DNA of 49,370 nucleotides from a virus. Of the stretch, positions 4,057 through 24,167 are shown piece after piece. The notes under the pieces were generated by a model, which saw only the letters and a program-made list of their open reading frames with translations, ran no database searches and was not told where the DNA came from. A program made the position numbers and the translations under genes. Numbering within the stretch: the stretch's first letter is position 1; each line of letters opens with the position of its first letter. The stretch lies in IMG/VR virus record IMGVR_UViG_3300048909_000032; one strand, written 5' to 3'.

Positions 4057-4084
4057 TGGTCTTACTCCGTTGATTTGTGTTTGG

Positions 4085-4975: not shown

Positions 4976-4992
4976 TTCGTCGTGCTCCGGTT

Positions 4993-5010
4993 GGTCCTTA
5001 TTGATGGACT
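4993..5010 (-). promoter_or_regulatory. AGTCC-N8-GGAC operator copy just downstream of the candidate phaZ promoter -10
   Basis: The minus strand reads CATAGTGAGTCCATCAATAAGGACC. 15 of 18 positions match the late-promoter copy GAGTCCATGATTAAGGAC at 23807..23824. Confidence 0.55.
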
Positions 5011-5011
5011 C

Positions 5012-5040
5012 ACTATGCGCTGACAATCAGGTTAGGTCAA
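5012..5040 (-). promoter_or_regulatory. Candidate sigma70-type promoter of the phaZ-like moron
   Basis: Minus strand TTGACC (5040..5035), 17 nt, CATAGT (5017..5012). A second TTGAC lies just upstream. Confidence 0.4.
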
Positions 5041-5061
5041 CGAATAAGTCAACTATTCGGA

Positions 5062-5086
5062 CAAAAGGAACCCGGCGAACCGGGCT
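5062..5086 (-). terminator. Rho-independent terminator after gene 5091..5600
   Basis: Minus strand agcccggttcgccgggttcctttt: a 5-bp GC stem, tetraloop, then a T-rich tail. Confidence 0.6.
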
Positions 5087-5090
5087 AGGA

Positions 5091-5600
5091 TTATTCAGAT
5101 ATTGGTGCTGGCTTCTCCATTCTGCACCAGAATGCAACGACCTTTTCACCATCGCTCTTGAACGGAACAAGCCACTGCCCGGACACGCGCTCATAAGAAA
5201 ATGAAAGGTGTACTGCCCGAGTTCGCTCCTTGCCGTCTTCAAATACATCGCCAGGAACGCGAAGCATCGATAATGGTCGACTGTCTTGGTCGAGGGTCGA
5301 GAGTTGCTGAATAAGTTGGCGAACCGTCTTTGGCGCTCCCCACTCCGCTGGATTGGAAGTCGCCTCTATGACACCAGGAAGACCTGTGTTCCGGCAGCAC
5401 TCGATTGCCAAATCTCCCGCGTCGGTAATTTCGTAGCGAGAAAAGCCGAGCGAGCGGATCAGGCCAACGCGCGCCAGCGACTTCATGCGGTCCTTCGGAA
5501 CGTCGTATCCCTGTCCGTCCTCGCTGGTCTCAAAGAAGCGCAGAAGGTCGCGCTTCTGTAGATCGGTCATCGATAGCGATATTTCGACTTTATTACCCAT
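5091..5600 (-). CDS. Hypothetical protein, 169 aa
   Basis: ATG 5600 preceded by GAGGGA and in a TGATG overlap with the upstream micro-ORF. The longer track version (5678) lacks these signals. Confidence 0.6.
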   Translation of the reverse strand: MGNKVEISLSMTDLQKRDLLRFFETSEDGQGYDVPKDRMKSLARVGLIRSLGFSRYEITDAGDLAIECCRNTGLPGVIEATSNPAEWGAPKTVRQLIQQLSTLDQDSRPLSMLRVPGDVFEDGKERTRAVHLSFSYERVSGQWLVPFKSDGEKVVAFWCRMEKPAPISE

Positions 5601-5749
5601 CACTGATCCCTCTGGTATTTGGCCTGTCGCATCTTGGAGCAGGCCGAGTGGTTGCCGGATGCGCGGACCTTTCCGCACATATCGCAGGTGTTGCAGATGA
5701 CAAGGCGCGGCATTGGCGGGCGTGGGTTGCGGCGTCTGCGTGGGGTCAT
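5600..5749 (-). CDS. Small basic Cys-rich (zinc-ribbon-like) protein, 49 aa
   Basis: Own translation MTPRRRRNPRPPMPRLVICNTCDMCGKVRASGNHSACSKMRQAKYQRDQ. ATGA overlap with the MTase stop and TGATG overlap with the next start. Confidence 0.5.
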   Translation of the reverse strand: MTPRRRRNPRPPMPRLVICNTCDMCGKVRASGNHSACSKMRQAKYQRDQ

Positions 5750-6753
5750 TTGCTCAGTATTCCGAATGCTGCTGCTGCCACTCGCGGAACTTGTCCATTG
5801 CCAAGGGCTTTAATTCGGTCCACCCGGCTGGCCACCCCATTAGCCACTCGACCCATTCCGGGTTCAGCTGGCCACCGTCGGAAGCCATCACCGCGTGGTC
5901 CAGCCGGTCGTTCGATCTGTCCGCGCCGGACTTGCGTGTCAGTGCCGCCGGCGATGATCCTTTCGCCATGCTCGCCACGGGAGTCGGCCAAGTCCTGGCT
6001 GATACCGCCTCGATCAGAGTCCCGCCCTCGCGCCCCTTCCTTGGCGTTATCCGTCCGCCCTTGCTTCCCAGTGTTGCAGTTGGTGTCGGCCACAGTTTCG
6101 CTTCCGCAGAAAGCTTCGGCTCCCCTCGACTGTTCCACTTCCCCTGGGCGCGATTTGTCGCATCGTCCGCCACTGGCGTCTGCCATAGCTTCACCGCGCT
6201 GCTCAGACCCCATCCCGCATTCTTGCTTGAGCCCGGCTGATTGTGATTCCCGCAAACGGTTATCGTAGGCCACAACCCAGCAACGCTCGCGCTGATGGGG
6301 CGCTCCAAGGTCGGATGCTGAAACAATGCACCACTGCGCGTCATACCCCATTTCGGCAAGGTCACCGAGGACCATGGCAAGTCCTCTTCCCACAAGCAAA
6401 GGTGAGTTTTCCACGAAGACGACTTTAGGTCGTACCTCGCCGATGATTCGCGCCATTTCTCCCCAGAGTCCAGATCGGGCGCCGTCGATACCGAGGCCAT
6501 TCCCGGCAGCTGATATGTCCTGACACGGGAATCCGCCCGAAACCACGTCAACAAGGCCTCGCCATGGCTTTCCGTCAAAACTGCACACGTCAGACCAAAT
6601 TGGGAAAGTTTCGAGGATTCCATCGTTTTGTCGTTGCGCCAAAACCTGTGCTGCGTAGGCATCACGCTCAACGGCGCAGACGGTGCGCCATCCCAAGAGG
6701 TGGCCGCCGAGAATTCCGCCACCAGCGCCTGCGAAAAGAGCCAGCTCATTCAT
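5746..6753 (-). CDS. DNA (cytosine-5)-methyltransferase, frame A
   Basis: Motif I LFAGAGGG, motif IV GGFPCQDIS, motif VI FVENS, motif VIII APHQRERCW, C-terminal WPAEPGMGRVANGVASRVDRIKALGNGQVP (motif X). GGAGGA lies 5 nt upstream of ATG 6753. The middle roughly 140 aa is G/R/D/E/S-rich low complexity. Confidence 0.88.
   Translation of the reverse strand: MNELALFAGAGGGILGGHLLGWRTVCAVERDAYAAQVLAQRQNDGILETFPIWSDVCSFDGKPWRGLVDVVSGGFPCQDISAAGNGLGIDGARSGLWGEMARIIGEVRPKVVFVENSPLLVGRGLAMVLGDLAEMGYDAQWCIVSASDLGAPHQRERCWVVAYDNRLRESQSAGLKQECGMGSEQRGEAMADASGGRCDKSRPGEVEQSRGAEAFCGSETVADTNCNTGKQGRTDNAKEGARGRDSDRGGISQDLADSRGEHGERIIAGGTDTQVRRGQIERPAGPRGDGFRRWPAEPGMGRVANGVASRVDRIKALGNGQVPRVAAAAFGILSK
5754..6749 (-). 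CDS. Alternative-frame ORF (frame B, 331 codons) almost co-extensive with the MTase gene; carries TRD-like WPTP repeats and an LMGWPAGWT motif
   Basis: ATG 6749 is 4 nt downstream of the frame-A ATG and behind the same SD. Contains LWPTITV, LWQTPVADD, LWPTPTATLGSKGG, TWPTPVASMAKG and LNPEWVEWLMGWPAGWT. Third codon positions look more G/C-rich than in frame A by eye. Confidence 0.45.
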   Translation of the reverse strand: MSWLFSQALVAEFSAATSWDGAPSAPLSVMPTQHRFWRNDKTMESSKLSQFGLTCAVLTESHGEALLTWFRADSRVRTYQLPGMASVSTAPDLDSGEKWRESSARYDLKSSSWKTHLCLWEEDLPWSSVTLPKWGMTRSGALFQHPTLERPISASVAGLWPTITVCGNHNQPGSSKNAGWGLSSAVKLWQTPVADDATNRAQGKWNSRGEPKLSAEAKLWPTPTATLGSKGGRITPRKGREGGTLIEAVSARTWPTPVASMAKGSSPAALTRKSGADRSNDRLDHAVMASDGGQLNPEWVEWLMGWPAGWTELKPLAMDKFREWQQQHSEY

Positions 6754-7133
6754 GCATCCTCCAGGATATCCATCTGTTTCGTCTTGCACTCCCGCTCACC
6801 AATCGGCAGCGGTGCCAGCTGCGAGTCGCTCGGATTCTTCATCAGTTCCCGGCGCGATTCATTCTCGAACTTGTCGCGCAACGTTTTGCTGATCACGACT
6901 TTATGGCGCGGGGGTCGTAGGAACTCGACAAGCTCGGCGTCGGTCATGGCGTCCATCTTGAGGATGGCCAGCTGGATGACTTCGCTGATCTCTGGTGTGC
7001 TCGACCGATCACGGATTCGATCCATTGCCGCCTCGATGCCTGGCCGTACCTTATGTCGAAGTTCCTTTTCTGCGAGCTTGCCACGCTTGGCTGCGGCCTT
7101 CTGGCTGCGCTGCTGGGTTGTCATTGCGGTCAT
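6750..7133 (-). CDS. Hypothetical protein, 127 aa
   Basis: Track ORF. Its stop overlaps the MTase start (ATGA) and its start overlaps the upstream stop. Confidence 0.6.
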   Translation of the reverse strand: MTAMTTQQRSQKAAAKRGKLAEKELRHKVRPGIEAAMDRIRDRSSTPEISEVIQLAILKMDAMTDAELVEFLRPPRHKVVISKTLRDKFENESRRELMKNPSDSQLAPLPIGERECKTKQMDILEDA

Positions 7134-7417
7134 TTCTTCTTCCTTTTCTTCGGGGTGCCACGGCCATGGGCCAGCCAGCCGGCGCCGATCACCTGATCAC
7201 CGACTTCCTTGATCAGTTCGTCCACGCGCTCATTGACGGCCGGCACCAGGTCAAACATCAGCGCATTCGGTATCGTCATGGCGTGAACGGTCTTTTCACC
7301 GGATGGAAGGGTTAACCAGACACTGACTTCCCAGCGAATTGGCTTCGAGGGTCGCGTACCCTTCGGCAGCGTGTGCCCGCCGTTCGGGCCGATGGTGTGC
7401 AGCACTGTCATCGTCAT
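7130..7417 (-). CDS. Hypothetical protein, about 95 aa, Lys-rich C-terminus
   Basis: Track ORF 7130..7471. An internal ATG at 7417 (MTMTVLHTIG...) is preferred, but the start is uncertain. Confidence 0.5.
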   Translation of the reverse strand: MTMTVLHTIGPNGGHTLPKGTRPSKPIRWEVSVWLTLPSGEKTVHAMTIPNALMFDLVPAVNERVDELIKEVGDQVIGAGWLAHGRGTPKKRKKK

Positions 7418-7489
7418 GGGATAGCCCGCTCGGGGTGATGTTGATGTGGGATTGCCGGCGTCGTGCGGCAACCCTTGAACTGATGCGCT

Positions 7490-7975
7490 TCACTTCTTGA
7501 ATTCGATCCCGTAGGTGGCGATCAATCGTTTCGCCTTGTGATGGCCGATACCGATGTGGTTGGCGGCGAGGGTCTTTTTAATACCGACCCCGGCCAGCGC
7601 CTTGAGTCGTTCGGCCAGCTTGGCGTCCTCGACCGGATCGATAACACAGGAGCCCCGGCTCTCCGGGTTCTTCCCGGTGCCAGAAACGCACGTGATGCCA
7701 TTTTCCCGGCAAGTCCGGTTGATCCTGTCGAGCGACACGCCCAGGCGCATAACCATCTGCGTCTTGGTCATCGTCTCGCCCAGCTTCCTGACCTGCTCGA
7801 CGAAATCGCGCTGCGTTTGCTCTTCTGGCGTGACCACATGGCCATACCGCGGACGCCTTGGCTCGAACTTGGGTGGGGCCAAATGCTCGATCTGGCCGCC
7901 CGATGCGAAAAATGCAGCCTGTGCAGCGGCCAGCTCAGACCGGTCGCCCTGTCTGGTGTCGTTGTATTGGTTCAT
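7490..7975 (-). CDS. Hypothetical DNA-binding-like protein, tandem paralogue A
   Basis: Shares an ordered set of segments with 7977..8606: GG.IE.L..P.F.P, VEQV+KL.ETM...Q, D..LAER+KA. Confidence 0.65.
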   Translation of the reverse strand: MNQYNDTRQGDRSELAAAQAAFFASGGQIEHLAPPKFEPRRPRYGHVVTPEEQTQRDFVEQVRKLGETMTKTQMVMRLGVSLDRINRTCRENGITCVSGTGKNPESRGSCVIDPVEDAKLAERLKALAGVGIKKTLAANHIGIGHHKAKRLIATYGIEFKK

Positions 7976-7976
7976 G

Positions 7977-8606
7977 TCAGTGTGCTCGGGAGTTGAAAGT
8001 CGGCTGAGGGCCGCGACTGCATTTCGGATAGTCGATATTGAACTTGGCCAGGATTCGCAGGAATGGCTTAAAGGTGAGCCCGGACTTCTCCATGGCCTTG
8101 CTACGGGTAAGCCCGGCTTTCATGAAGGCCTTGATTCGCTCAGCCAGGTCGGCGTCATTCGCGCCATCGACACCACCACGCGTGTAGCCTGCTGGCTGGA
8201 ACTTGAAGCCGTATTCCTTTGCCATGGAGAACAAAGTCTTTCGCGACAGCCCGGTGCGCAGGATCGCCTGCGAGTAGCTCATGGTTTCGGCGAGCTTTTT
8301 GACCTGCTCAACAAGCTCTGCTCGAGCCCTTTCGGCAATTTCGGCTCGCTCTTCGCGTTCGATTTCGCGCAAGGTCATTTTTGTGACCTTTTCGGGTTCG
8401 GCTACAGCCTTGGGCGTCACTGGTTTGGCGGCCTTTCTGCGAGGCGGCGGTTCATGCCTCGCGGGTGGCGGCACGAAACTCGGCCCCTGCAACACCTCAA
8501 TAACCCCGCCCTTTCTCAAGAAATCCCGCTCAAGCATTGCGATCTCATAGCTCCTGGCCGCGTTCTCTTTGACCATGTTCAATTCGGTGCTGACGTATGC
8601 GCTCAT
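7977..8606 (-). CDS. Hypothetical DNA-binding-like protein, tandem paralogue B
   Basis: As above. 209 aa with a Pro/Lys-rich linker. Confidence 0.65.
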   Translation of the reverse strand: MSAYVSTELNMVKENAARSYEIAMLERDFLRKGGVIEVLQGPSFVPPPARHEPPPRRKAAKPVTPKAVAEPEKVTKMTLREIEREERAEIAERARAELVEQVKKLAETMSYSQAILRTGLSRKTLFSMAKEYGFKFQPAGYTRGGVDGANDADLAERIKAFMKAGLTRSKAMEKSGLTFKPFLRILAKFNIDYPKCSRGPQPTFNSRAH

Positions 8607-8627
8607 GGCGACCTCGCTTTCGGCCCC

Positions 8628-8655
8628 AAAAGAAAAGGGCGCTCTATTGGCGCCC
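8628..8655 (-). terminator. Rho-independent terminator after the exonuclease gene
   Basis: Minus strand gggcgccaatagagcgcccttttctttt: GGGCGC/GCGCCC stem then a T-run. Confidence 0.6.
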
Positions 8656-8674
8656 AGTTGGTTGGATTGGCTGA

Positions 8675-9355
8675 TTACTTCTTCAGCGCTTTGATCAGGT
8701 ACGGATCGACGTCGGCCTGGCCGAGTAGCCAGCGCTTATAGTCGGCAGGGATGTCGGCGATTTTCGATCCGGCGTGCTTGCCGAAGCGGATCACGGTCGG
8801 GATGCGTGCCTCTTCTGAGATTTCCCACAACCGTTCCCAGCTTCCCAGTTCCTGACCGGGCTCAAAATTCAGGCAATTAATGATCGCGATCAGCAGTCGG
8901 CGGCAGTTGTGCACGTCGTCGAGCGCAGCGTGAGCGTTCTTCAGCAGCTCTCGCGCCTGGTCCCGGTAGTGCAGGTAGATCATCGCCGATTGGCTGTGCG
9001 AGTCAGCATCCGGCCAGAGCGAACGGCTCAGCGCCTGGGTGCAGATGCGTTTCACGTCAGGCTGACCGATCACGCCCCAGTCATAGTCGACGTTGTGGCC
9101 GATGATGTAGGTGGTGCCGTCGGGAAGCGTGAAGTCCGTGTGAGGCGGACAGTCGACCAGATCCTCGTCGAGGATATGCGCGGTAGCCAAGGCGCCAAGC
9201 TCAATCGGCTTTGATGGTTTGTAGCGCTGAAGGAACTGCTCGGCGACCGTCAGCGTCTGGATGCTATCCAGTCGAAGCCATGCCGCCTCAGTTGGCTGCG
9301 GCTCTTTCAGGCCGGTTGTTTCGAAATCAAGAATAATTGCTGTCATGTAGGTCAT
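8675..9355 (-). CDS. DnaQ-like DEDDh 3-5 exonuclease (ExoX-like) with C-terminal KH.G..I.DIP.DY..W motif
   Basis: Exo I ILDFETTG, Exo II IIGHNVDYDW, Exo III HAALDDV; C-terminal FGKHAGSKIADIPADYKRWLL. Confidence 0.85.
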   Translation of the reverse strand: MTYMTAIILDFETTGLKEPQPTEAAWLRLDSIQTLTVAEQFLQRYKPSKPIELGALATAHILDEDLVDCPPHTDFTLPDGTTYIIGHNVDYDWGVIGQPDVKRICTQALSRSLWPDADSHSQSAMIYLHYRDQARELLKNAHAALDDVHNCRRLLIAIINCLNFEPGQELGSWERLWEISEEARIPTVIRFGKHAGSKIADIPADYKRWLLGQADVDPYLIKALKK

Positions 9356-9394
9356 CCGTTTTCAGTGTGATGGGCTGGTGGCTCGAGCGAGGAT

Positions 9395-9850
9395 CTAGAA
9401 CGGGATTTCTGGATCGTATTGCGAGTCATCAGGCTGCTGCGCTGATTGCTGGCTCCGTTGCTGCGATTGTTGACGCGACGCCGATTGCTGCTGGTCGCCA
9501 TCCTGCGGCTTGCCGCCGAGCAGCTGCATGGTGCCCTGCATGTCCACGATGATTTCCGTGGTGTAACGCTTGACCCCATCCTTCTCCCATTCACGGGTTT
9601 GTAGCTTGCCTTCGATGTACACCTGAGAGCCTTTACGCAGGTACTCCCCGGCAATCTCGGCGACCTTACCGAACAGACAGACCCTATGCCATTCGGTTTT
9701 TTCGACCTTCTGGCCGGTTTGCTTGTCGGTCCACTGTTCGCTGGTGGCCAGGCTCAGATTTGTTACTGCGTTGCCGTTGGGCATGTAGCGAACTTCAGGA
9801 TCCTGTCCGCATGTGCCGACCAAAATTACTTTATTGACGCCGCGTGCCAT
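9395..9850 (-). CDS. ssb: Single-stranded DNA-binding protein
   Basis: [40 protein letters not shown]...[32 protein letters not shown]-rich tail ending DPEIPF. Confidence 0.92.
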
Positions 9851-9899
9851 ATTTCTCTACCTCGATTTGATACCCCGGCACCGGCCGGGGCTTGATTGG

Positions 9900-10490: not shown

Positions 10491-10498
10491 GGCGCACC

Positions 10499-10642: not shown

Positions 10643-10649
10643 GGGCGCC

Positions 10650-11744: not shown

Positions 11745-11789
11745 GCGTGTATCTCCCGCGCCATCCGGGACCGGGGCGCCGCGCTTGGG

Positions 11790-13777: not shown

Positions 13778-13793
13778 GGGTGGGTGCGGGTTT

Positions 13794-13988: not shown

Positions 13989-14001
13989 GACTTACTCCTT
14001 C

Positions 14002-14130: not shown

Positions 14131-14236
14131 GATTCCTCCGGTATGCGTCCGTAATTAGTCCTTTCGGCTTGCGACAGCGGCTGTTAGTGCCGCCTTCTTT
14201 CCAGTGCGAGGGCTTTGGCTTCCATGGCGAATCCCC

Positions 14237-14341
14237 TTAAAGGCCAAACAGCGCGCTGATGCTGCGAATCCAGGACACCGGAACGAGCAGCGCGAACGCC
14301 AGGCCGGCCGACATGCAAATGACACCTACGTAACGTTTCAT
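14237..14341 (-). CDS. Micro-ORF, 34 aa, hydrophobic peptide; first gene of the leftward operon
   Basis: Own translation MKRYVGVICMSAGLAFALLVPVSWIRSISALFGL. Its SD ACGGAG lies inside the palindrome at 14350..14367. Confidence 0.35.
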   Translation of the reverse strand: MKRYVGVICMSAGLAFALLVPVSWIRSISALFGL

Positions 14342-14349
14342 GCGTGCTT

Positions 14350-14367
14350 ACTCCGTAATTACGGACC
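14350..14367. promoter_or_regulatory. Operator-like palindrome ACTCC-GTAATTAC-GGACC (core TCCGTAATTACGGA is a perfect 14-bp palindrome)
   Basis: Read directly. It overlaps the SD of the first leftward micro-ORF and belongs to the AGTCC-N8-GGACT family. Confidence 0.5.
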
Positions 14368-14430
14368 TGCGTCCGTGGTCGATTCTTTCCCGCTGCGGCC
14401 TCTCTCAAAGCCACACTGGTGAAAGGTGTT

Positions 14431-14466
14431 CCCAGGCCCGCTACTGGCGACGGCCTGGGTTTATTG
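14431..14466 (+). other. Strong hairpin followed by a T-rich tract (terminator-like) inside the ORF-free control region
   Basis: cccaggcc-cgctactggcgac-ggcctggg then tttattg: an 8-bp GC-rich stem. Confidence 0.4.
14437..14453 (+). repeat. 17-nt direct repeat, copy A (cccgctactggcgacgg)
   Basis: 16 of 17 positions match copy B at 14705..14721, which lies 268 bp away. Confidence 0.7.
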
Positions 14467-14704
14467 CTTCAGCGGTGTTGGCCAGTTGCCCGCTGCTGAT
14501 TGCAGGTCTGGCCGGTCGTCTTCGTGGGTGGGCTTCGAGCTTCCTACTCATGGCGTCAATCAGCATCTGTTCGCCATGGATCACAGGTCCTTACAACATG
14601 CACGCTACAGCTCTGAATGCCCGATTTAGTGGGGCAGGGTGCATGAGGTCCGGCGTTCCCAGCCGAGGCTATCGGGATCACTAATTCAAATCTGTTCGCC
14701 GCAA

Positions 14705-14721
14705 CCCGCTACTGGCGTCGG
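14705..14721 (+). repeat. 17-nt direct repeat, copy B (cccgctactggcgtcgg)
   Basis: See copy A. Confidence 0.7.
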
Positions 14722-14929
14722 TCACTGGCTTGAATCTTCTGTCATTCCAGCCGCGGGCCTTTCGGCTTATCTCCCGCTGGATAACTGTTCTTGGCGTTTT
14801 ACGCTGCACACCCGGGTCAGTTGCCAACCCTCTGAACCGTTAAGGCCGGTTCATCGCTGCCTTTGAATCTGGGCCGGTGGTTATCCGGCAGAGATGTTGC
14901 GGTGTAACTAAAGATCGTTTTGCCATCGC

Positions 14930-14947
14930 AGTCCCTGTGTGTGGACT
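14930..14947. promoter_or_regulatory. AGTCC-N8-GGACT operator copy
   Basis: agtcc ctgtgtgt ggact, with perfect 5-bp inverted arms. Confidence 0.55.
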
Positions 14948-14972
14948 CGATGGAATGGACTTTACAGATCAG

Positions 14973-14984
14973 AAACGTAGCGCG
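14973..14984 (+). promoter_or_regulatory. AAACGTAGCGCG motif, copy 1
   Basis: The identical 12-mer also occurs at 16105..16116 and 25834..25845, always on the plus strand upstream of plus-strand genes. Confidence 0.5.
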
Positions 14985-15050
14985 CAAGTCCTTTTGTAAA
15001 ATATTTTTCAACTCGGAAACGCAGGCGACGGACGGACCAATAATGGACCA

Positions 15051-15088
15051 TTGCGCAATTGTTTCGGAACGGCAATAATGGCCGAAAC
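15051..15088 (+). promoter_or_regulatory. Candidate rightward early promoter flanked by inverted repeat GTTTCGG-N14-CCGAAAC
   Basis: TTGCGC (15051), 17 nt, AATAAT (15074). The inverted-repeat arms at 15061..15067 and 15082..15088 bracket the -10. CAATAATGG occurs twice (15038, 15073). Confidence 0.4.
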
Positions 15089-15104
15089 CAGCACAGGAGG
15101 ATTT

Positions 15105-15359
15105 ATGGCAGACCTGAAAAAAGGCTTTAAAGGGCCGAAGAACGATGCACTGATGAACTGGCTGGAATTAGCCACCGATGCGCAGGTCAAAGCGACCGGC
15201 GCCTCGCGCAGCCACTTGCGCCTGATCGCCTACGGGCACCGCAAAACAGCCCCCGAATATGCGGCTATGATTGAGGCAGCGACTCAGGGACTGATTACGC
15301 GCCAGCAGCTTCGCCCGGATGACTGGAAGGTGATCTGGCCGGAGCTGAAAGCAGCATGA
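15105..15359 (+). CDS. Cro / YdaS-like small HTH regulator, 84 aa
   Basis: AGGAGG lies 5 nt upstream of ATG 15105. ...ATGASRSHLRLIAYGHRKTAPEYAAMIEAATQGLITRQQLRPDDW resembles the YdaS/Cro family ending (T.G.VTR..LRPD). Confidence 0.6.
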   Translation: MADLKKGFKGPKNDALMNWLELATDAQVKATGASRSHLRLIAYGHRKTAPEYAAMIEAATQGLITRQQLRPDDWKVIWPELKAA

Positions 15360-15411
15360 AACACGAATCCGGGTAAAGACCCGGCAAATACCCACTGACT
15401 AGGTAACCCCT

Positions 15412-15618
15412 ATGGCATACGATGACAAAATCCACCGGCATGACCGGCAAGTGAAGATCATGCTCAACACGGGCATCTTCGATGACCTGCGCGACGTGGC
15501 TGTGGCCAACGGCCTGCAACACAGCGTCCTCGCTCGCGAAGTGATCGAAGCCTTCCTCAAGGCTGTGGAAGAAACCGGCAAACTCCCCCTGGGCCTGGAT
15601 CAAAGAAAACGCGCCTGA
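15412..15618 (+). CDS. Ribbon-helix-helix (CopG/Arc-like) protein, 68 aa
   Basis: RQVKIMLNTGIFDDLRDVAVANGLQHSVLAREVIEAFL matches the beta-alpha-alpha RHH pattern. Confidence 0.6.
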   Translation: MAYDDKIHRHDRQVKIMLNTGIFDDLRDVAVANGLQHSVLAREVIEAFLKAVEETGKLPLGLDQRKRA

Positions 15619-15635
15619 TCACGTAATTAAGGACT
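15618..15635. promoter_or_regulatory. Half-site copy of the operator family (atcac-gtaattaa-ggact)
   Basis: The right arm and spacer ATTAAGGACT are identical to the late-promoter copy. The left arm is degenerate. Confidence 0.35.
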
Positions 15636-15643
15636 AATACAAG

Positions 15644-15901
15644 ATGCCCGGAAAAAATGCAGTTGTGATGGACTTCAGCGCTTCTTCTCAGCAGAGACTG
15701 GAGCGCATAGCGTCAATGTTGGGCATTACCGTGGATGATCTGGCCGACGCGGCTCTGACCATCGGCCTACCGGGCATCAAGCAGGCGCTGCAAAGCGCCT
15801 GTGATACCAGCCCCGTGGAAAAGGTTCAGGTGGGTGGCGTGATGGCCAATGTGGTGTGTTTGTGGAGCAAGCAGCCGATCGCCAGGGAGGCCAGTGGCTG
15901 A
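15644..15901 (+). CDS. Hypothetical protein, 85 aa
   Basis: Track ORF with AAGGAC upstream of the ATG. Confidence 0.5.
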   Translation: MPGKNAVVMDFSASSQQRLERIASMLGITVDDLADAALTIGLPGIKQALQSACDTSPVEKVQVGGVMANVVCLWSKQPIAREASG

Positions 15902-15907
15902 CCGCGA

Positions 15908-15925
15908 AGTCCGTAATTCTGGACT
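15908..15925. promoter_or_regulatory. AGTCC-N8-GGACT operator copy
   Basis: agtcc gtaattct ggact, immediately after the stop of 15644..15901. Confidence 0.55.
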
Positions 15926-15964
15926 GGTTCCCAAAGTGGTAGGAAAGATGCACAATCAGCAGGC

Positions 15965-16013
15965 AAAAAAAAGCCACCTGGCGGGTGGCTTCTCAACAAC
16001 GTCTAACTATGTG
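15965..16013 (-). ncRNA. Predicted leftward sRNA of about 50 nt ending in a strong intrinsic terminator
   Basis: Minus strand cacatagttagacgttgttgagaagccacccgccaggtggctttttttt: GCCACC/GGTGGC stem plus T8. It lies 7 nt downstream of the promoter at 16020..16047. Confidence 0.4.
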
Positions 16014-16019
16014 GACTTC

Positions 16020-16047
16020 ATTGTATGAACATTGCTCAAAATTGCAA
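16020..16047 (-). promoter_or_regulatory. Candidate sigma70 promoter on the minus strand (TTGCAA-N16-TACAAT)
   Basis: -35 at 16047..16042 and -10 at 16025..16020. It is followed by GAAGTCC-N8-AGACG, an imperfect operator copy placed as at the late and phaZ promoters. Confidence 0.45.
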
Positions 16048-16079
16048 TACCTCCGTTCGTCTTCTCAAAGGTGAACAAT

Positions 16080-16119
16080 CCGCGCCACAAAATGCGACAA
16101 ACGAAAACGTAGCGCGGAA
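16080..16119 (+). promoter_or_regulatory. Conserved leader element, copy A (CCGCGCCAC...GAAAACGTAGCGCGGAA) ending 7 nt before ATG 16127
   Basis: Aligns with 25808..25848. CCGCGC and GCGCGG can pair as a stem. Confidence 0.5.
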
Positions 16120-16126
16120 AGAAACA

Positions 16127-16801
16127 ATGAACAGCATCGACTTGCTAGATCTGGTCAATGCTGCCCGCCTTGAATTCGGTGAAAGCGAGGTCCGTCGCTC
16201 GGACTTCACCGCTCGCTGCAAGGATGAGCTGTCCGGCGAATACTACGAAACTTTCGTAGTTCATAATTTGCGCGGACCAGCCTCGGAAGCGCTAACCCTC
16301 ACCCTCGATCAGTGCATGCTGGTTTCAATGCGCGAGTCGAAGTCCGTCCGCCGGACCGTCCTGCAAAAGCTCAAGGATATAGAGAAGCCTCGCGAACTTT
16401 CCCGCATGGACCTTATTCAGCTTGCCTTGGCTGCCGAACAGGAAAAGCTTCAGATCGCCGCCGAGCGTGATCAAGCCGTCGCCACCAAGGCCGAGATTGG
16501 AAGTCGCCGCGAAGCCACCGCCATGGCCACCGCCTCATCCGCCGTAAAGCGCGTCAACAAACTTTTGGGCGAACTGGGCCGAAACGCCAAAGCCGCAACC
16601 GTCATTGCCGTCGAGAATGCAGGCAGCAGAAATTTCGGTAGCCAGGGCTTTCGACCACTCAAGAAGTGGTGCACGGCCAGGGGTATTTCTCCGGACAAGG
16701 TTCCATGCCCAAGGTTTGGTTATGCCGTTGCATGGCCGGCTCAAGCATGGCTCGACTGCTACGACATTGACCTGAGCGTCGTGTTCGGGGGTGAAGCATG
16801 A
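16127..16801 (+). CDS. Phage regulatory protein, Rha/antirepressor-like (tentative)
   Basis: Start moved to ATG 16127 (MNSIDLLDLVNAARLEF...). LTLDQCMLVSMRESKSVRRTVLQKLKDIE resembles the Rha-domain end. Coiled-coil middle. Confidence 0.45.
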   Translation: MNSIDLLDLVNAARLEFGESEVRRSDFTARCKDELSGEYYETFVVHNLRGPASEALTLTLDQCMLVSMRESKSVRRTVLQKLKDIEKPRELSRMDLIQLALAAEQEKLQIAAERDQAVATKAEIGSRREATAMATASSAVKRVNKLLGELGRNAKAATVIAVENAGSRNFGSQGFRPLKKWCTARGISPDKVPCPRFGYAVAWPAQAWLDCYDIDLSVVFGGEA

Positions 16802-19109: not shown

Positions 19110-19255
19110 ACCTCCTAGTCATGTCCAGCACTGGCCGTATGCAGTCCTCTTGGCTGAAGGTCAACCTGATCCGTATCGGCTTGTGGCGCCCTCAGATCTG
19201 CGATGACGCTACGTCGGATGGTCCGCACTGCAAGATTCGTTGGGGGATGAAATGA
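19106..19255 (+). CDS. Micro-ORF, 49 aa
   Basis: ATGA overlaps at both ends. MNLLVMSSTGRMQSSWLKVNLIRIGLWRPQICDD... Confidence 0.4.
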   Translation: MNLLVMSSTGRMQSSWLKVNLIRIGLWRPQICDDATSDGPHCKIRWGMK

Positions 19256-19641
19256 TGAGTCAGATGATCGAAGTGAATACCGCCGAACTAACCGGGCAGG
19301 CGCTGAATTTTGCCGTAGCAATCTCAGACGGCTGGTCGTGGGATGGCCAGAAAGGCTATGACGGCTATATGGCGGCAGCTTGGCTTTCCAAGGATGGCAC
19401 GAGAGAGCAATTTCAGAATTTTCGGTATTCATGCAGCTGGCACTTGGTCGGACAATTGATCGAGAAGTACCGCCTGGCATGGCAGTACCTTGAAGAGGAT
19501 GAGATTGAGGCGTGGGTTTTGGGAAAGTCAAAATCAACCGGCATGATTGGCGGCACCCAGATCATTGCTTCATGCCGAGCAATCGTGAAGCTAAAGCTCG
19601 GCGACACCGTTAAAGTCCCTGCCGAACTGGTGACGCCATGA
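19252..19641 (+). CDS. DUF2591 / NinX-like protein (paralogue of 2837..3196)
   Basis: ELTGQALNFAVA...SCSWHLVGQLIEKY...IIASCRAIVKLKLGDTVKVPAELV. Confidence 0.7.
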   Translation: MMSQMIEVNTAELTGQALNFAVAISDGWSWDGQKGYDGYMAAAWLSKDGTREQFQNFRYSCSWHLVGQLIEKYRLAWQYLEEDEIEAWVLGKSKSTGMIGGTQIIASCRAIVKLKLGDTVKVPAELVTP

Positions 19642-19814
19642 CCCCTCCCCAAGCAATGCAGGTCGCCCGCCTCCAGTCCCAAGGCTTCGCGCTGACCCAG
19701 GAACTCAAGGACGCCGTTCGGATGGTCAAGGGTGCGGATATTCGCATCGTGATGAGCGACGGAACGATGAAACGAGGACACCATGAGAGCAGGCCGCACA
19801 AGGAGAAGGTGTGA
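19638..19814 (+). CDS. Micro-ORF, 58 aa
   Basis: Own translation MTPPQAMQVARLQSQGFALTQELKDAVRMVKGADIRIVMSDGTMKRGHHESRPHKEKV. Coupled at both ends. Confidence 0.45.
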   Translation: MTPPQAMQVARLQSQGFALTQELKDAVRMVKGADIRIVMSDGTMKRGHHESRPHKEKV

Positions 19815-20329
19815 TGGGCAAAACATTCGCTGAAAACCTGATTTTGGCTAGATCCAAGACCGGCATGACACAAAAAGAACTGGCGCGGAAAAGCGGCTTG
19901 AGTACTCAGCAGTTAGCTGGGTATGAAGTTGGTGACTCCGGATCAATATCAAGTCCACCCCTAACGCACGTGATCAAATTGGCAAGCGTTCTCGGAATTA
20001 GCATCGATGATCTGGTTCCCATTCATAAATTCAATGCTGAACCATCTCTGGCGAACCTGATCGCCGAGATTGACCGCCTGAAATCCGATCTGCGTGAGTC
20101 AGAGGATCTGGTTGAGCATCTGCAGGACAAGCGGACCGAGCTGCAGCGGGAGGTTGAGATGCTGCGCAAGGCTGCCGGAGATGCATCTGCCGAACTGTAC
20201 AAGGCCGTCGGCTGGATCTGTCGGGAAGTCGAGGCCGGCACCAAGTCAGCGACCCACTGGGCAATCCGGCTTGGTAGCAGCGCCAAGGTGCTAGAGGCAG
20301 CCATTGCCAAAGGGGGCTCCAATGGCTGA
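19814..20329 (+). CDS. XRE-family HTH protein with C-terminal coiled coil
   Basis: FAENLILARSKTGMTQKELARKSGLSTQQLAGYEVG...LASVLGISIDDLV. No S24 peptidase domain seen. Confidence 0.75.
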   Translation: MGKTFAENLILARSKTGMTQKELARKSGLSTQQLAGYEVGDSGSISSPPLTHVIKLASVLGISIDDLVPIHKFNAEPSLANLIAEIDRLKSDLRESEDLVEHLQDKRTELQREVEMLRKAAGDASAELYKAVGWICREVEAGTKSATHWAIRLGSSAKVLEAAIAKGGSNG

Positions 20330-20792
20330 TAAAATCAGCGTCAACAGCCAAGCCAAGCTTTCCGAGGCGATCACCTGCCTGACAGCCATGTACCGGGAGA
20401 AGAGGTTTGTTGTCGTCTCGCTGCGGCCCGGCAAGGATCGTACCCTTGATCAGAACGCCCTATGGTTCGCCCTGTACAAGCGAATTGCGGAAATGACGCA
20501 GATAGGCGATGTCGAGGACGCTCGCCGGTACTGTAAGCTGCACTTCGGTGTGGTGATCATGCGTGGCGAAAGCGAGGAATTTCGCGACGGCTGGAACCGG
20601 ATGTTCCTGCATCTGGAGTACGAGCAGAAGCTTGAGCTGATGGGGCCGTGTTCGATCTTTGGGCCGGATGGCTTCCCGGTGACGCGATTGTTCAACCGGG
20701 CGCAAGGAATTCTGTACACGGATCGCATCGTTTCGGAGTTCACGGGAAGGGGCGTTTTCTTCGGCGATTTGCTGAAAGAGGAAGCCGCATAA
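20322..20792 (+). CDS. ninB: NinB/Orf-family recombination mediator
   Basis: VVVSLRPGKDRTLDQNALWFALYKRIAE parallels lambda NinB ...RNRSLDQNRKLWACLGDVS. Confidence 0.65.
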   Translation: MADKISVNSQAKLSEAITCLTAMYREKRFVVVSLRPGKDRTLDQNALWFALYKRIAEMTQIGDVEDARRYCKLHFGVVIMRGESEEFRDGWNRMFLHLEYEQKLELMGPCSIFGPDGFPVTRLFNRAQGILYTDRIVSEFTGRGVFFGDLLKEEAA

Positions 20793-20817
20793 AATAGTTA
20801 CCAATCGGCAAAAAATA

Positions 20818-20847
20818 AGTCCCTAACCACGGACTATGCGCTATAAT
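20818..20847 (+). promoter_or_regulatory. AGTCC-N8-GGACT operator copy directly upstream of a TATAAT box
   Basis: agtcc ctaaccac ggact atgcgc TATAAT (20842..20847). The operator sits where a -35 would be. Confidence 0.5.
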
Positions 20848-20880
20848 CGCCTGACGAAAACGGACGTGAGGCAGGCGGTT

Positions 20881-21177
20881 ATGCGAGTAATTTCCAAAAA
20901 GCTCAGAGAGTCCGCAAGAGATCAATCTTGCACTCTGCGCCTAAGTGGCTGCCAGCATGATCACGGCGTCGTGCTGGCCCACCTTCCCTGTGGTCAGAAG
21001 GGTGTCGGGATGAAGGGTCCAGACGTAATTGCCTGTTTTGCCTGTGACCACTGTCACTCAGTCATTGATTCCCGCGTCCGCGGCGAATACACCGGCGCTG
21101 ACCTGCTGCGCGCCCTTGCTGAAACTCAAATGTACTGGATCGAGAAAGGCCTGATAACGGTCAAGGGGGCTGCGTGA
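20881..21177 (+). CDS. YbcO-like (DUF1364) putative nuclease
   Basis: RESARDQSCTLRLSGCQHDHGVVLAHL...KGPDVIACFACDHCHSVID...ETQMYWIEKGLI parallels E. coli YbcO. ATG 20881 was chosen because the track start 20836 precedes the TATAAT box. Confidence 0.65.
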   Translation: MRVISKKLRESARDQSCTLRLSGCQHDHGVVLAHLPCGQKGVGMKGPDVIACFACDHCHSVIDSRVRGEYTGADLLRALAETQMYWIEKGLITVKGAA

Positions 21178-21446
21178 GCCATCAATTCAAAGAAGGCGAC
21201 TTGGCTCTCACCATCGTCGATGACGAATTTATCCCCGCCTACAGCGTAGTGACGCTCAACTCCAGAGCAACGAAAGGTGAGCCGTGCTTCACGTGGGATG
21301 ACAAGCCGGATTTCGCTGAGGATGATGGATGGTTTGTCCTACACCCCAGCAGCAAAGAGGCATGGTTTTATGCCGACAAGGAGTTGATCCCACTGAAAGG
21401 CGATTTCGATCCAGTCCAGCAGAAGGATCGCGAGGTAGTCGCATGA
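21174..21446 (+). CDS. Hypothetical protein, 90 aa (GTG start)
   Basis: Track ORF in a GTGA overlap, with AAGGGGG upstream. Confidence 0.5.
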   Translation: MSHQFKEGDLALTIVDDEFIPAYSVVTLNSRATKGEPCFTWDDKPDFAEDDGWFVLHPSSKEAWFYADKELIPLKGDFDPVQQKDREVVA

Positions 21447-21523
21447 CCGCCATCACCCTACTCGCCATCGCCTGGTTCTGCCTTCGGGGCCAGGTCATCA
21501 ACTGGTGGAGGTCGTGCAAGTGA
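21443..21523 (+). CDS. Micro-ORF, 26 aa, hydrophobic
   Basis: MTAITLLAIAWFCLRGQVINWWRSCK. ATGA overlap. Confidence 0.3.
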   Translation: MTAITLLAIAWFCLRGQVINWWRSCK

Positions 21524-21678
21524 AGAAACCTTGCCCGATCAACGCCAACCACGACACATCTGCATTCAGCACCTATCAGGATTTGTGGTGCCACGACTGC
21601 CGGAAATTCCACCCTTGGCCGCTGAAGCCTGATCAGCGACCGTTGCATTCTGACCCCAGAGACAAGCGGAGTAAGTGA
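21520..21678 (+). CDS. Micro-ORF, 52 aa, Cys/His-containing (GTG start)
   Basis: VKKPCPINANHDTSAFSTYQDLWCHDCRKFHPW.... Coupled at both ends. Confidence 0.35.
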   Translation: MKKPCPINANHDTSAFSTYQDLWCHDCRKFHPWPLKPDQRPLHSDPRDKRSK

Positions 21679-22133
21679 TGAAAGTAACAGATGCGGAAAT
21701 TCTGAAAGCTATTTGGCGCGAACAAATCAAGAAGACAGCGCATGGGGTAATTGATAATTACATCGGCGGAACCAAGTCGGTTTCTTATGGCCAATTCCGC
21801 CAGGGGTATGCGCAAAACCTCTACATGATAAGTCGTCAGCAGCTGGGCCTGCCGCTGAGTAAAGGTCATCTGGGTCGACGCCTGAAGGCTTTGATCAGTT
21901 CCGGTGGTCCATTGCAGTGGGATGGCAGGGAAGGTAATGCATACCACTTCAAGTGCAAGGCCAGTGATGATGTGTATGCCGCCGCCCGTGAGTGGTGGGC
22001 AGGTAAGGGCGTGCCGACAGGGTTTGATGAAGAGAACAAACGCACACGTACGGCCCTCGTCGACGACTTCGACGGCAAGGTCGCGCAGCTTCAGCAGGAC
22101 CTGCTGTCCAAGTTCGGGAGCATGCAGCCATGA
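21678..22133 (+). CDS. Hypothetical protein, 151 aa
   Basis: Track ORF. ATG 21678 in a TGATG overlap. Confidence 0.6.
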   Translation: MKVTDAEILKAIWREQIKKTAHGVIDNYIGGTKSVSYGQFRQGYAQNLYMISRQQLGLPLSKGHLGRRLKALISSGGPLQWDGREGNAYHFKCKASDDVYAAAREWWAGKGVPTGFDEENKRTRTALVDDFDGKVAQLQQDLLSKFGSMQP

Positions 22134-22258
22134 TGGATACGACTGAGCTGAAGAAACTGGCCGAGGCTGCTGAAAATAACAGTTTGTCCCGGCAGGACGA
22201 GATCAATAGCCTGCGTGAGCGGCTTGCTCGCCTTGAACTGAAGGCGGTGAAGCCATGA
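22130..22258 (+). CDS. Small coiled-coil protein, 42 aa, sharing its C-terminal motif with 48916..49155
   Basis: ...RQDEINSLRERLARLELKAVKP compared with ...YQDEINSLRERLARLEPKGVKP. Confidence 0.45.
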   Translation: MMDTTELKKLAEAAENNSLSRQDEINSLRERLARLELKAVKP

Positions 22259-22560
22259 CCCGCAAACACAATCATTATTTTAAAAGCGTGTCACACCTAT
22301 CCGAAATCGACGTGTACCGGGTACTAGACCTGTTCGCCGTGACCAATCCCAGCATCCAGCACGCGACCAAGAAGCTGCTGTGTGCGGGCGGACGTGGCAC
22401 CAAGGACTTCGAGAAGGATCTGCGCGAGGCGCGGGATTCGATTGAGCGGGCATTGCAGATGATCGCGGAGGACAGAAGCCAGATCAGCGAGCCGTTATCG
22501 CTGGTGCCGCTGAGCGCCTGCACATGCTTCGAGAGGGATTGCGCATGTCTTCAGGCGTAA
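22255..22560 (+). CDS. Hypothetical phage protein, 101 aa
   Basis: HYFKSVSHLSEIDVYRVLDLF..T.PSIQHATKKLLCAGGRGTK is a widespread phage motif of unknown function. Confidence 0.6.
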   Translation: MTRKHNHYFKSVSHLSEIDVYRVLDLFAVTNPSIQHATKKLLCAGGRGTKDFEKDLREARDSIERALQMIAEDRSQISEPLSLVPLSACTCFERDCACLQA

Positions 22561-22973
22561 CCGCAAGGAAGCCCAAGGCGATCGCCCTGCCGGTGCCGAC
22601 GGAGCATGTCGAACAGGTGAAAGTTATTACGTGGTTCCGCCTGCAATACCCGGCGATCAAGGAACTGCTGATCGCAATCCCGAATGGCGCACATCTGGCC
22701 GGGACGCCGATCCAGCGAGCCAAGAAGATTCAGCGCATGAAGGCCGAAGGGTTCACCACTGGGGTGGCGGACCTGTTCCTGATGAAGCCGTCTTTCGGGT
22801 ATTCCGGCCTATGGATCGAAATGAAGCGACTCAAGTATTCGCCATCCGACGTGAGCGACGACCAGAAGGCGTTCCAGGTGAGAGCGCTGGATAACGGGTA
22901 TCAGGCAGTGGTGTGCGGCGGCTTCGAGGCTGCGCGGGAAGCGATCAAGGCATATTTGCAGGGGGTGGTATGA
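22545..22973 (+). CDS. VRR-NUC domain nuclease
   Basis: EHVEQVKVITWFRLQYP...IPNGAHL...GFTTGVADLFLMKP....GLWIEMK...Q..F...L...GY.AVVC (D...ExK core). Confidence 0.8.
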   Translation: MSSGVTARKPKAIALPVPTEHVEQVKVITWFRLQYPAIKELLIAIPNGAHLAGTPIQRAKKIQRMKAEGFTTGVADLFLMKPSFGYSGLWIEMKRLKYSPSDVSDDQKAFQVRALDNGYQAVVCGGFEAAREAIKAYLQGVV

Positions 22974-23179
22974 GCAAGTGGGTGGCGCGGGTCCGCTGCA
23001 AATGCGGCCATGCATATTCAGGGGAAATATTCAGTGCATCTGACTTTCGGATAATCCAAGTATGCCCAACCTGCGGGAGCAAGAAGGAATGGCGCGACAC
23101 GGTAGAGCGCTGGGTATCAACCTCGAAGTGGAATAGTCCGCGCACATGGGGTACTGGCTACTGGGAGGTTAAGGCATGA
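22970..23179 (+). CDS. Small zinc-ribbon protein, 69 aa
   Basis: MSKWVARVRCKCGHAY...VCPTCGSKKEW. ATGA overlaps. Confidence 0.5.
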   Translation: MSKWVARVRCKCGHAYSGEIFSASDFRIIQVCPTCGSKKEWRDTVERWVSTSKWNSPRTWGTGYWEVKA

Positions 23180-23715
23180 AATATCTAAACATCGTCACAG
23201 CAGTGGTCCGGGCACTATCGACCGACAACATGGGCGGCGGCATGAACTTCGAGCCTCGGGTGCAGGACACCAAGCTCAAGGGGGAGATCACTGGCAAGGA
23301 TGACCAGCTGCTGCACGACAGTATGATCCGGGCTCGCCTGCATGCCACGCTGGCCCCGGAACACTGGGAGATCCTGAAGGCCAAGTTCTCGCCGGACCTG
23401 AACCACAAGCGCGAATCCATTCGGGCGGTGCGTACCCGAGTGAAGACGCCTGCGCCGGAACGGTTCAGGGATGCTGCGGTGCTGACCTGGGCCATGCCGA
23501 AACTGCCGGGGAAGGATGGGAAGCGCTCAGCTACCACGCTGCCGGCCGAATGGTACGAAACTGATCGCTGGTGTGACGATCCTGTGCCAGAGAGAACCAA
23601 GCAGCGCTGGAGGCGTGACATTTCCATCGGGTTGGAGGCGGAAGTGAACAAGGCGCTAGCCATTGCTCAGGAAGCGCTGGAGCCGCTGGGAATCTTCCGC
23701 GAACAGGTAGCGTGA
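23176..23715 (+). CDS. Hypothetical protein; a late-gene regulator (Q-like) candidate by position only
   Basis: It is the last gene before the late promoter-leader-terminator and lysis genes. No motif recognised. Confidence 0.55.
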   Translation: MKYLNIVTAVVRALSTDNMGGGMNFEPRVQDTKLKGEITGKDDQLLHDSMIRARLHATLAPEHWEILKAKFSPDLNHKRESIRAVRTRVKTPAPERFRDAAVLTWAMPKLPGKDGKRSATTLPAEWYETDRWCDDPVPERTKQRWRRDISIGLEAEVNKALAIAQEALEPLGIFREQVA

Positions 23716-23776
23716 TAAATATATTTACTGGCCCATTGCCAAGACTGGCGCTGTGGCGTATCGTATTGTCATCCTG

Positions 23777-23825
23777 TTGCAATTGCGTTCAGGGCTTGAA
23801 TATATAGAGTCCATGATTAAGGACT
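23777..23825 (+). promoter_or_regulatory. Candidate late promoter (TTGCAA-N17/18-TATATA) with an AGTCC-N8-GGACT operator at the start site
   Basis: ttgcaa ttgcgttcagggcttga atatata g agtcc atgattaa ggact. Confidence 0.45.
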
Positions 23826-24159: not shown

Positions 24160-24167
24160 ATTCCAAG

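Follow-up and report, generated by a model that had tools for sequence, protein, structure and literature searches.

The window analysed here is the whole of IMG/VR virus record IMGVR_UViG_3300048909_000032 (49,370 nt), a 49-kb, 59% G+C lambdoid phage genome of the Pseudomonas fluorescens group in which an 18-bp palindrome, AGTCC-N8-GGACT, recurs in the regulatory regions of five or more transcription units. The palindrome had been picked out in an original prediction as the operator of one dimeric regulator. The gene map was built from open reading frames (ORFs), Pfam and PHROGs, and about 83% of the window is coding. Leftward transcription from the early promoter PL begins with a long ORF-free leader. 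The rightward arm begins, behind a putative promoter PR, with genes for a Cro-like protein, for a small ribbon-helix-helix-like (RHH-like) protein which we call RHH1, for a second small protein and for a Rha/Ant-like protein. Related stretches compared with the window carry L-labels (L003, L052, L130 and so on), and a 48-kb metagenomic contig (L001/L052/L098) is a near relative. Among GenBank phages the nucleotide matches were short stretches in Pseudomonas phages only. The features are located in Table 1.

Table 1. Location of the sites and of the surrounding features in the window.
Feature	Position	Strand or direction	Details
Serine recombinase	1212-1832		Resolvase/invertase type, 206 aa; sole recombinase in window
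Site AGTCCATCAATAAGGACC	4993..5010	-	1 nt past -10 of predicted moron promoter; 18 nt upstream of alpha/beta-hydrolase ATG (4975)
Early-left arm	up to 14342	leftward	ERF, SSB, exonuclease, methyltransferase, moron cluster
Weak copy ACTCCGTAATTACGGACC	14350..14367		Two mismatches; overlaps Shine-Dalgarno of first leftward gene
ORF-free leader	14370-14930	minus-strand transcript	560 nt; opens early-left operon
Site AGTCCCTGTGTGTGGACT	14930..14947		Exact match; about +5..+22 of leftward early promoter PL
Direct 7-4-7 heptads ACGGACC-aata-ATGGACC	15032..15049	+	Abut -35 of putative PR
Cro-like gene	15105-15359	rightward	YdaS family
RHH1	15412-15618	+	68-aa RHH-like protein, phrog_4113; proposed site-binding regulator
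Second small protein	15644-15901	+	85 aa; RHH-like pattern read by eye from the translation, no tool result; possible RHH1 partner
Site AGTCCGTAATTCTGGACT	15908..15925		Exact match; 7 nt past stop of second small gene, 3 nt upstream of putative ant promoter
Predicted antisense small RNA (sRNA) unit	15953..16047	-	About 55 nt; promoter TTGCAA-N16-TACAAT (16047..16020) over ant/Rha start codon 16025; strong intrinsic terminator about 15958-15985
Rha/Ant-like gene	16025-16801	+	phrog_4936; weaker matches to anti-repressor Ant; downstream of cassette
O-like and DnaC-like replication genes, then NinX	after Rha/Ant-like gene	rightward	
XRE protein	19814-20329	rightward	HTH_3 domain and coiled-coil tail; just upstream of 20818 site
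Site AGTCCCTAACCACGGACT	20818..20835		Over -35/spacer of predicted promoter with perfect TATAAT (20842-20847), ahead of YbcO/VRR-NUC/Q-like genes
NinB, YbcO, VRR-NUC, then gp23176	gp23176 at 23176-23715	rightward	
Site AGTCCATGATTAAGGACT	23808..23825		Exact match; late leader, about +38..+55 of Q-type late promoter; conserved TTGAATATATAG precedes
Late leader			Proteo-phage-1 RNA 23838-23936 (Rfam), tRNA-Met 24083-24159, terminator 24165-24190; terminase and structural genes after

The exact palindrome occurs four times in the window (14930, 15908, 20818 and 23808) against 0.05 expected, and none of 100 dinucleotide shuffles reached four. With one mismatch allowed there were seven matches against 1.2 expected. 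The three additional ones are at 4993, 27672 and 32748, the first genuine and the other two, which lie in coding sequence, probably due to chance. The four exact copies and the one-mismatch copy at 4993 are all non-coding. With two mismatches the class as a whole was not enriched (24 matches, 19 expected), and weak copies are therefore not acceptable from the sequence alone. A scan of GTCC-Nk-GGAC gave a peak of five matches at k=8, the other spacings giving between 0 and 3. Positions 7 (T) and 12 (A) are also conserved, and the refined site is a pair of heptads separated by a 4-bp gap, AGTCCnT-N4-AnGGACT. This 12-position consensus has six matches at one mismatch or fewer against 0.05 expected, five of the six being non-coding. 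With centres 11 bp apart, the two half-sites face the same side of the helix.

The same four positions carry sites among L052, L054, L130, L133, L134, L003, L004 and L006. In pairwise comparisons across these relatives the arms are 92% identical, the inner and centre positions 61% and the 10-nt flanks 58%, ie the arms are kept while spacer and flanks drift. Eight copies are present in L130, in which RHH1 is 84% identical. Both the comparison with shuffled sequence, in the exact and one-mismatch classes, and the conserved arms agree with the original prediction that AGTCC-N8-GGACT is a real repeated family, and on these comparative data the family is under selection. No Rfam family matched at the sites, the sole match above threshold being Proteo-phage-1, next to the 23808 copy, and a scan of IMG/VR for TATAKAGTCC-N8-GGACT returned mostly chance matches outside the family.

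PL, on the minus strand, reads TTGCGC (14987..14982)-N17-TAAAGT (14964..14959) and is kept as TTGCGC-N17-TAACTT in L001 and L054. In L052, L054, L130 and L133 the PL leader opens with a homologue of the 14930 copy, which is also present, in imperfect form, in many heteroimmune Pseudomonas phages. The putative PR (TTGCGC 15051-15056, N17, AATAAT 15074-15079) is of a type, TTGCGC-N17/18-AATAAT, kept in five phages. The direct heptads beside it are also found in L133, which has the same Cro type as the window, and L052, L054 and L130 have instead an inverted AGTCCAT-N4-AAGGACG directly upstream of TTGCGC/TTGCGA/TTGTGC-N18-AATAAT. Since direct GGAC-N7-GGAC and direct heptads with the 11-bp phase show no enrichment in the window relative to other spacings, the pair at 15032-15049 is assigned to the family tentatively. 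The putative ant promoter downstream of the 15908 copy (TTCCCA 15929-15934, N17, CACAAT 15952-15957) is a prediction from sequence, conserved in window-type relatives. The 15908 position is also occupied in L052, L054, L130, L133 and L134, and in about 40 further Pseudomonas prophages the syntenic place holds two palindromes, TCCCTAATTAGGGA and GTCCCTCATAAGGGAC.

The 20818 copy is close to its TATAAT, as had been noted, ending 6 nt before the hexamer, and the layout is repeated in L052 (15255), in L130 (14668; TATATT 7 nt on) and in L006 (8084; TATGAT 8 nt on). The 23808 copy is kept in L003, L004 and L130 and weakened in L006 (AGTCC-N8-AGACC). Three promoters had been described as sharing one layout, a -10 hexamer, a G and then the operator. 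The moron promoter alone shows it clearly, with a predicted TTGACC (5040..5035)-N17-CATAGT (5017..5012) followed by G-AGTCC, and the site at position 271 of L052 is identical to this copy. In the late promoter proposed on that layout the -35 (TTGCAA) is not conserved in L003 or L004. A different late promoter, TTGCCA-N17-TATCGT (23736-23764), is conserved throughout the gp23176 family, and it is this promoter that puts the palindrome some 38 nt past the start of the late transcript. At the sRNA promoter the AGTCC at 16013 is a half-site only. In L130 one leftward copy, 4 nt past a -10-like ATTATT, resembles the moron layout, with no clear -35 there. The positions of the sites relative to the predicted promoters are thus heterogeneous, ie within the transcript at PL, upstream of the -35 at PR and ant, over the -35 and spacer at nin/Q, and well downstream in the late unit.

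The weaker copies fared less well. That at 14350 does overlap the Shine-Dalgarno of the first leftward gene; L052 has it unchanged, L130 has GCTCCGTAATTATGGACC between different flanks, and its membership of the family is uncertain. That at 14147 is also present in L052; its halves, GTCC-N7-GTCC, are in direct and not in inverted orientation. The copy at 15618 is the Shine-Dalgarno (AAGGA) of the next gene, its palindrome not being kept in L130, L133 or L134, and at 16000 the left half-site alone survives in the closest relative; both were rejected. A terminator role was also rejected for the 20818 and 23808 copies, which a scanner flags as minus-strand terminator-like, since no minus-strand gene ends there. 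Elements containing CCGTAATTA, at 14147-14164 and 14350-14367, coincide with or directly adjoin the Shine-Dalgarno sequences of the two small genes that open the leftward arm and are conserved in L052 and L130. The window has five plus-strand CGTAATT heptamers, of which four fall within 14150-15912. These elements may represent weak copies of the operator or, alternatively, hairpins that act on translation by masking the Shine-Dalgarno. The Rha/Ant-like coding sequence itself contains two GTCC-N7-GGAC palindromes, both GC-rich in the centre, at 16190-16208 (AGGTCCGTCGCTCGGACTT) and 16342-16360 (AAGTCCGTCCGCCGGACCG); their spacing is one base under that of the family and they may be due to chance.

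Of the proteins put forward as the regulator, the RHH protein is the one that tracks the motif across relatives. RHH1 is 74-100% identical in each multi-site relative that covers the early region (L052, L054, L130, L133 and L134). Forty-five prophage loci were fetched from IMG/VR by RHH1, at about 50% identity, and nearly all have palindromes 240-270 nt downstream. These are again TCCCTAATTAGGGA and GTCCCTCATAAGGGAC, with arms as in the window, situated between the second small gene, upstream, and, downstream, a leftward terminator with an ANT, BRO or Rha gene. In the reverse test, stretches were picked from IMG/VR by DNA alone, with the pattern TCCCT-N4-AGGGA-N11-GTCCCT-N4-AGGGAC. Of the 28 returned, one (L074) was already in the RHH1-fetched set, and in the 27 new stretches RHH1 and a small gene were found directly upstream wherever the sequence extended far enough. 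The N-terminus of RHH1, MAYDDKxHRHDxQVK, is invariant between the window-type and PA-type proteins, which are about 50% identical overall, and both groups share the arms of the palindrome. When 12 homologues were aligned by hhalign with Arc, Mnt, CopG, omega and ParG, they matched in register over residues 13-50 (44% probability, E=2.3e-4), and Q13-K15-M17 of RHH1 fell on Q9-N11-R13 of Arc. At 44% probability this profile alignment is only suggestive, as is the reading of the invariant N-terminal stretch as the DNA-contacting strand.

RHH1 is accordingly named here as the likeliest binder on comparative grounds, and the whole statement, that the copies are operators of one sequence-specific phage regulator and that this regulator is RHH1, is given an even chance. 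That a single DNA-binding regulator acts on several units is probable, as originally proposed; the uniform architecture that went with the proposal did not hold. A number of observations count against RHH1. It has no Pfam match at E<0.01 and no PDB sequence match, and its single-sequence AlphaFold model has a mean predicted local distance difference test score (pLDDT) of 61 and a helical N-terminus with no strand. L006 has three sites (2473, 8084 and 10632) and no RHH1 homologue in 20 kb, and UFJF_PfDIW6 retains an imperfect PL-leader copy where tblastn finds no RHH1 homologue in the phage collection. The co-occurrence of RHH1 and the palindromes, which are less than 300 bp apart, may reflect common descent of the cassette rather than binding. 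Moreover, a uniform mechanism of repression is not evident from sites that range from upstream of a -35 to +38, and every promoter and start site used here is a prediction.

No homologue of RHH1 was found by tblastn against GenBank phages, a word-index protein search gave four clusters only, and the very divergent homologues of MR15 and Medea1 were found by synteny or hidden Markov model only. In MR15, with its divergent homologue, the palindromes of the syntenic place are altered. A de novo search of MR15 and PS-1 for a repeated palindrome family found none, so that any argument from covariation of operator and protein rests on few data points. In L006, a ParA gene and then a small ORF, RHH-like by eye, occupy 1273-2452.

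The gene order RHH1, small gene, Rha/Ant-like of the window appears in the relatives inspected as RHH1, small gene, ANT/BRO/Rha. The second small gene, which always lies between RHH1 and the site, is 51% identical in L054, undetectable by BLAST in L130 and the PA-type loci, and replaced in relatives by non-homologous genes of 69-77 aa. The terminator and arrangement of the predicted sRNA unit are conserved in relatives, and a terminator is found at the same place in dozens of prophages. In Medea1 (L101), at about 1436-1470, there are everted heptads with 4-bp spacers, AGGGACT-cgat-AGTCCCT-gaaa-AGGGAGG, which overlap the stop codon of a small ORF, not annotated, that precedes the Rha gene; this phage has just a distant RHH paralogue, gp52.

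The sites might be DNA operators bound by some protein other than RHH1, whether a host Pseudomonas regulator, the Cro-like protein or the second small protein, and this we regard as possible though doubtful. A binder other than RHH1 would suit the same arms being present across heteroimmune phages of different Pseudomonas groups, and also the sites of L006 and UFJF_PfDIW6 that are accompanied by no detected RHH1 homologue. A host factor would leave unexplained why palindrome pairs selected by pattern adjoin RHH1 wherever the upstream sequence reaches, and no host regulator is known to have such a site. PL and PR are where a Cro-type protein would act, and the recognition-helix region of the window's Cro-like protein resembles that of L001 by eye although the two are 51% identical overall. 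However, Cro-like proteins have diverged to about 50% identity while the sites stay the same, and in many palindrome-bearing PA-type loci the Cro proteins are unrelated; the second small gene, for its part, is not conserved. Two further candidates of the original prediction, gp23176 and the XRE protein, are most improbable binders. The XRE protein has a suitable domain and is encoded beside the 20818 site, but is missing from L130 and L006, both of which carry sites. The case for gp23176 is that it is the sole protein common to the window, L003, L004 and L006, all of which have late and nin-type copies. Against it, the gene occupies the Q position and has its own co-varying direct repeats in a promoter spacer which, with an invariant CATCCTGT, form a Q21-like loading site; moreover, homologues at 32-71% identity lack the late-leader palindrome, which L130, with a Q at 46%, possesses.

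Alternatively the palindrome could work as RNA, a hairpin with a 5-7 bp stem that serves as a boxB/nut-like loading element for antitermination or as a 5' stabilising or processing hairpin marking operon starts. The PL site falls at the very start of its transcript and in many relatives is followed by a second hairpin and then by a perfect rrn-type boxA, GCUCUUUAACAA, as in an rrn or nut leader. The 23808 copy is within the late leader RNA just before Proteo-phage-1, and the 15908 copy is nutR-like in place, after the cro-proximal genes and before a terminator. The predicted stability of the hairpins is -5 to -9 kcal/mol, several variants are compatible with U-G pairing (eg GTCTCT/AGGGAC), and the everted AGGGACT-cgat-AGTCCCT of Medea1 retains a hairpin and not the geometry for a dimer. 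Compensatory covariation is nevertheless absent: in 54 distinct sites, positions 6 and 13 are C-G or mismatched (TT, AA, CC, GT), with one T-A, one A-T and no G-C. A mismatch in the PL-leader copy, AGTCCCT...AGTGACT, is fixed in most PA-type phages and has no compensating change. The sequence of the arms does not vary, and the centre, which would be the loop, is A/T-rich and otherwise variable. The left arm of the moron copy would not be transcribed because it lies upstream of the predicted start, and the 20818 and PR sites are upstream of a -10 or a -35 and therefore outside those transcripts. The boxA accompanies the PL copy only and is degenerate in the window. Lastly, direct arrangements at 11-bp phase, at PR (window and L133), at 14147 (window and L052) and in L006 (AGGGACC-agaa-AGGGACC), are unable to fold. 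An RNA element is on balance unlikely, and recognition of the sites as DNA, by one sequence-specific regulator, is the most economical reading.

The early-left leader is conserved in its own right. Over 450-560 nt free of ORFs it shows 73-90% nucleotide identity across heteroimmune Pseudomonas phages (L007, L008, L055, L056, L064, L072, L083-L087 and L092), and in many of these it starts with the palindrome, the second hairpin and the perfect boxA. The degenerate boxA of the window is CGAUCUUUAGUUAC, at about 14893-14906. The leader matches no Rfam family and may serve in antitermination of an rrn-like or RNA-based kind.

The protein gp23176 itself looks like a Q-like late antiterminator of an apparently undescribed family whose binding repeats co-vary with the protein. 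Homologues of this protein (phrog_3412) occupy the Q position in D3 (orf84), F10, JBD44, MR15 (gp72) and PS-1 (gp41), and the gene is always the last of the early-right genes. In the survey, which covered the window, L003, L004, L006, L050, L056-L095, L099 and L130, a promoter follows each homologue, even at 32% identity, and its spacer contains a direct repeat peculiar to the phage: CTGGCG/GTGGCG (23745-23758) in the window, and two copies of CTTGCG in L004, of TGTCGC in L006, of TGCAAC in L076 and of TGTCCG in L085. The invariant CATCCTGT follows the promoter at about -1..+7, with a -10-like CATCCT at about -1..+5, and then usually comes a short leader and a terminator. The Q21 antitermination site has a direct-repeat binding element, and the layout of the gp23176 promoters matches it. 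Gene position, promoter-embedded repeats, the -10-like pause element and the terminator are thus all of the Q type, and a Pfam search found no sequence homology to known Q families. Scans of genomes and metagenomes for closer relatives of gp23176 and for the late-leader sequence yielded almost nothing. The Proteo-phage-1 RNA (55.9 bits) sits between the Q-type loading site and the first terminator; a literature search on it found nothing.

Should RHH1 be the binder, it would occupy a site as a dimer of dimers, like Arc or Mnt, possibly with the second small protein. The ancestral unit would be an immI-type cassette of the early-right operon; two operators would have preceded ant, and a third would have stood where the PL leader starts. 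In Pseudomonas prophages the cassette mostly has just two or three sites, next to an ordinary CI/Cro switch. In the lineage of the window the operator would have been copied to PR, to the nin/Q promoter, to the late leader and to the moron promoter. RHH1 made early from PR would then occupy the sites, blocking initiation where a site overlaps the -35, -10 or +1 and elongation where it lies downstream, the late copy serving as a roadblock a little beyond the point of Q loading. One protein would in this way turn off the early-left, ant, nin/Q, late and moron units together, and PR would be damped too. At PR and ant, whose sites are upstream of the -35, the effect might instead be activation.

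Neither an S24/CI-type repressor nor an integrase was detected among the scanned ORFs of the window or in L130, and no CI gene was seen between PL and PR in this lineage. It is conceivable, and we suggest it tentatively, that this is a CI-less lambdoid Pseudomonas lineage in which an Arc-like RHH protein from an immI-like cassette has become the master regulator through the spread of an 18-bp operator. The site family would then be a Gram-negative counterpart, with symmetric sites, of the mycobacteriophage stoperator system. Early and late control are poorly characterised in Pseudomonas lambdoid phages. If RHH1 does bind, a local antirepressor cassette can grow into a genome-wide regulon by the copying of a short operator, and there is a handle on gene control in phages of the P. 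fluorescens group that have no recognisable CI. The predictions concern five to eight sites, one 68-aa protein and the promoters PL, PR, ant, nin/Q and moron.

The immI region of P22 comprises two protein repressors, an antisense RNA and ant (PMC2629481). The cassette of the window resembles it in having one or more small RHH-type genes directly upstream of an antirepressor-like gene, a predicted short antisense RNA whose promoter lies over the ant start codon, as with sar (and recalling oop of lambda), and palindromic operators within the cassette with half-sites about one helical turn apart. It differs in that its presumed repressors have no detectable homology to Arc or Mnt (no Pfam or PDB match), the similarity being of profiles at the level of the fold. 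It is also situated in the early-right operon rather than the late operon, its operators lie downstream of the RHH genes and not at the promoter ahead of them, and in this lineage the sites have spread to at least five other transcription units. The heptad geometry, repeated half-sites about one helical turn apart, is that expected of an RHH operator. The half-site GTCC(A/C)/GGAC resembles that of the Mnt operator, in which the spacing is about 5 bp compared with the 8 bp between GTCC and GGAC here. Omega of pSM19035 and ParG of TP228 are small RHH dimers that use short direct or inverted repeats at several promoters. The palindrome family is similar in that its heptads, with 4-bp spacers, occur inverted, direct (PR of the window, L006) and everted (Medea1), and in that an L006 site lies between a ParA gene and divergent rightward genes. 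However, the repeat differs in sequence and length, and the direct and everted forms are few and not enriched.

For mycobacteriophage L5, 20-30 repressor sites have been reported, most of which are not associated with promoters (PMC6550527). With the stoperators of gp71 in L5 and Bxb1 the present family shares sites of one regulator distributed over the genome, some of them downstream of promoters (here 23808 and 14930), and nothing further. The L5/Bxb1 sites are asymmetric, 13 bp long, oriented with transcription and bound by a helix-turn-helix immunity repressor, whereas the present sites, 5-8 in number, are symmetric and 18 bp long, the phage is lambdoid with a Gram-negative host, and the proposed binder is an RHH protein; by number and symmetry they are not stoperators. 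A further distributed set of repressor sites in an actinophage is formed by the conserved inverted repeats of phiC31. The resemblance to lambda nut and rrn sites is that the PL copy opens a long leader and has, in relatives, a perfect boxA about 25 nt downstream. The hairpin, however, comes before the boxA, the other copies have no boxA, and there is neither covariation nor a conserved loop. The moron, nin and PR copies, being partly or wholly upstream of their predicted starts, set the family apart from lambda-type nut sites. It is likewise distinct from CI/Cro-type immunity operators, in that heteroimmune phages share the palindrome and have, upstream of it, OL operators that differ from phage to phage.

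The lineage of the window may be non-integrating, with a plasmid-like prophage, or lytic. A moron-like block at 3373-6749 has its own terminator and promoter and encodes a pentapeptide-repeat protein (3373-4056) and the alpha/beta hydrolase (4085-4975). A DNA methyltransferase-like gene (5754-6749) lies upstream of these two genes.

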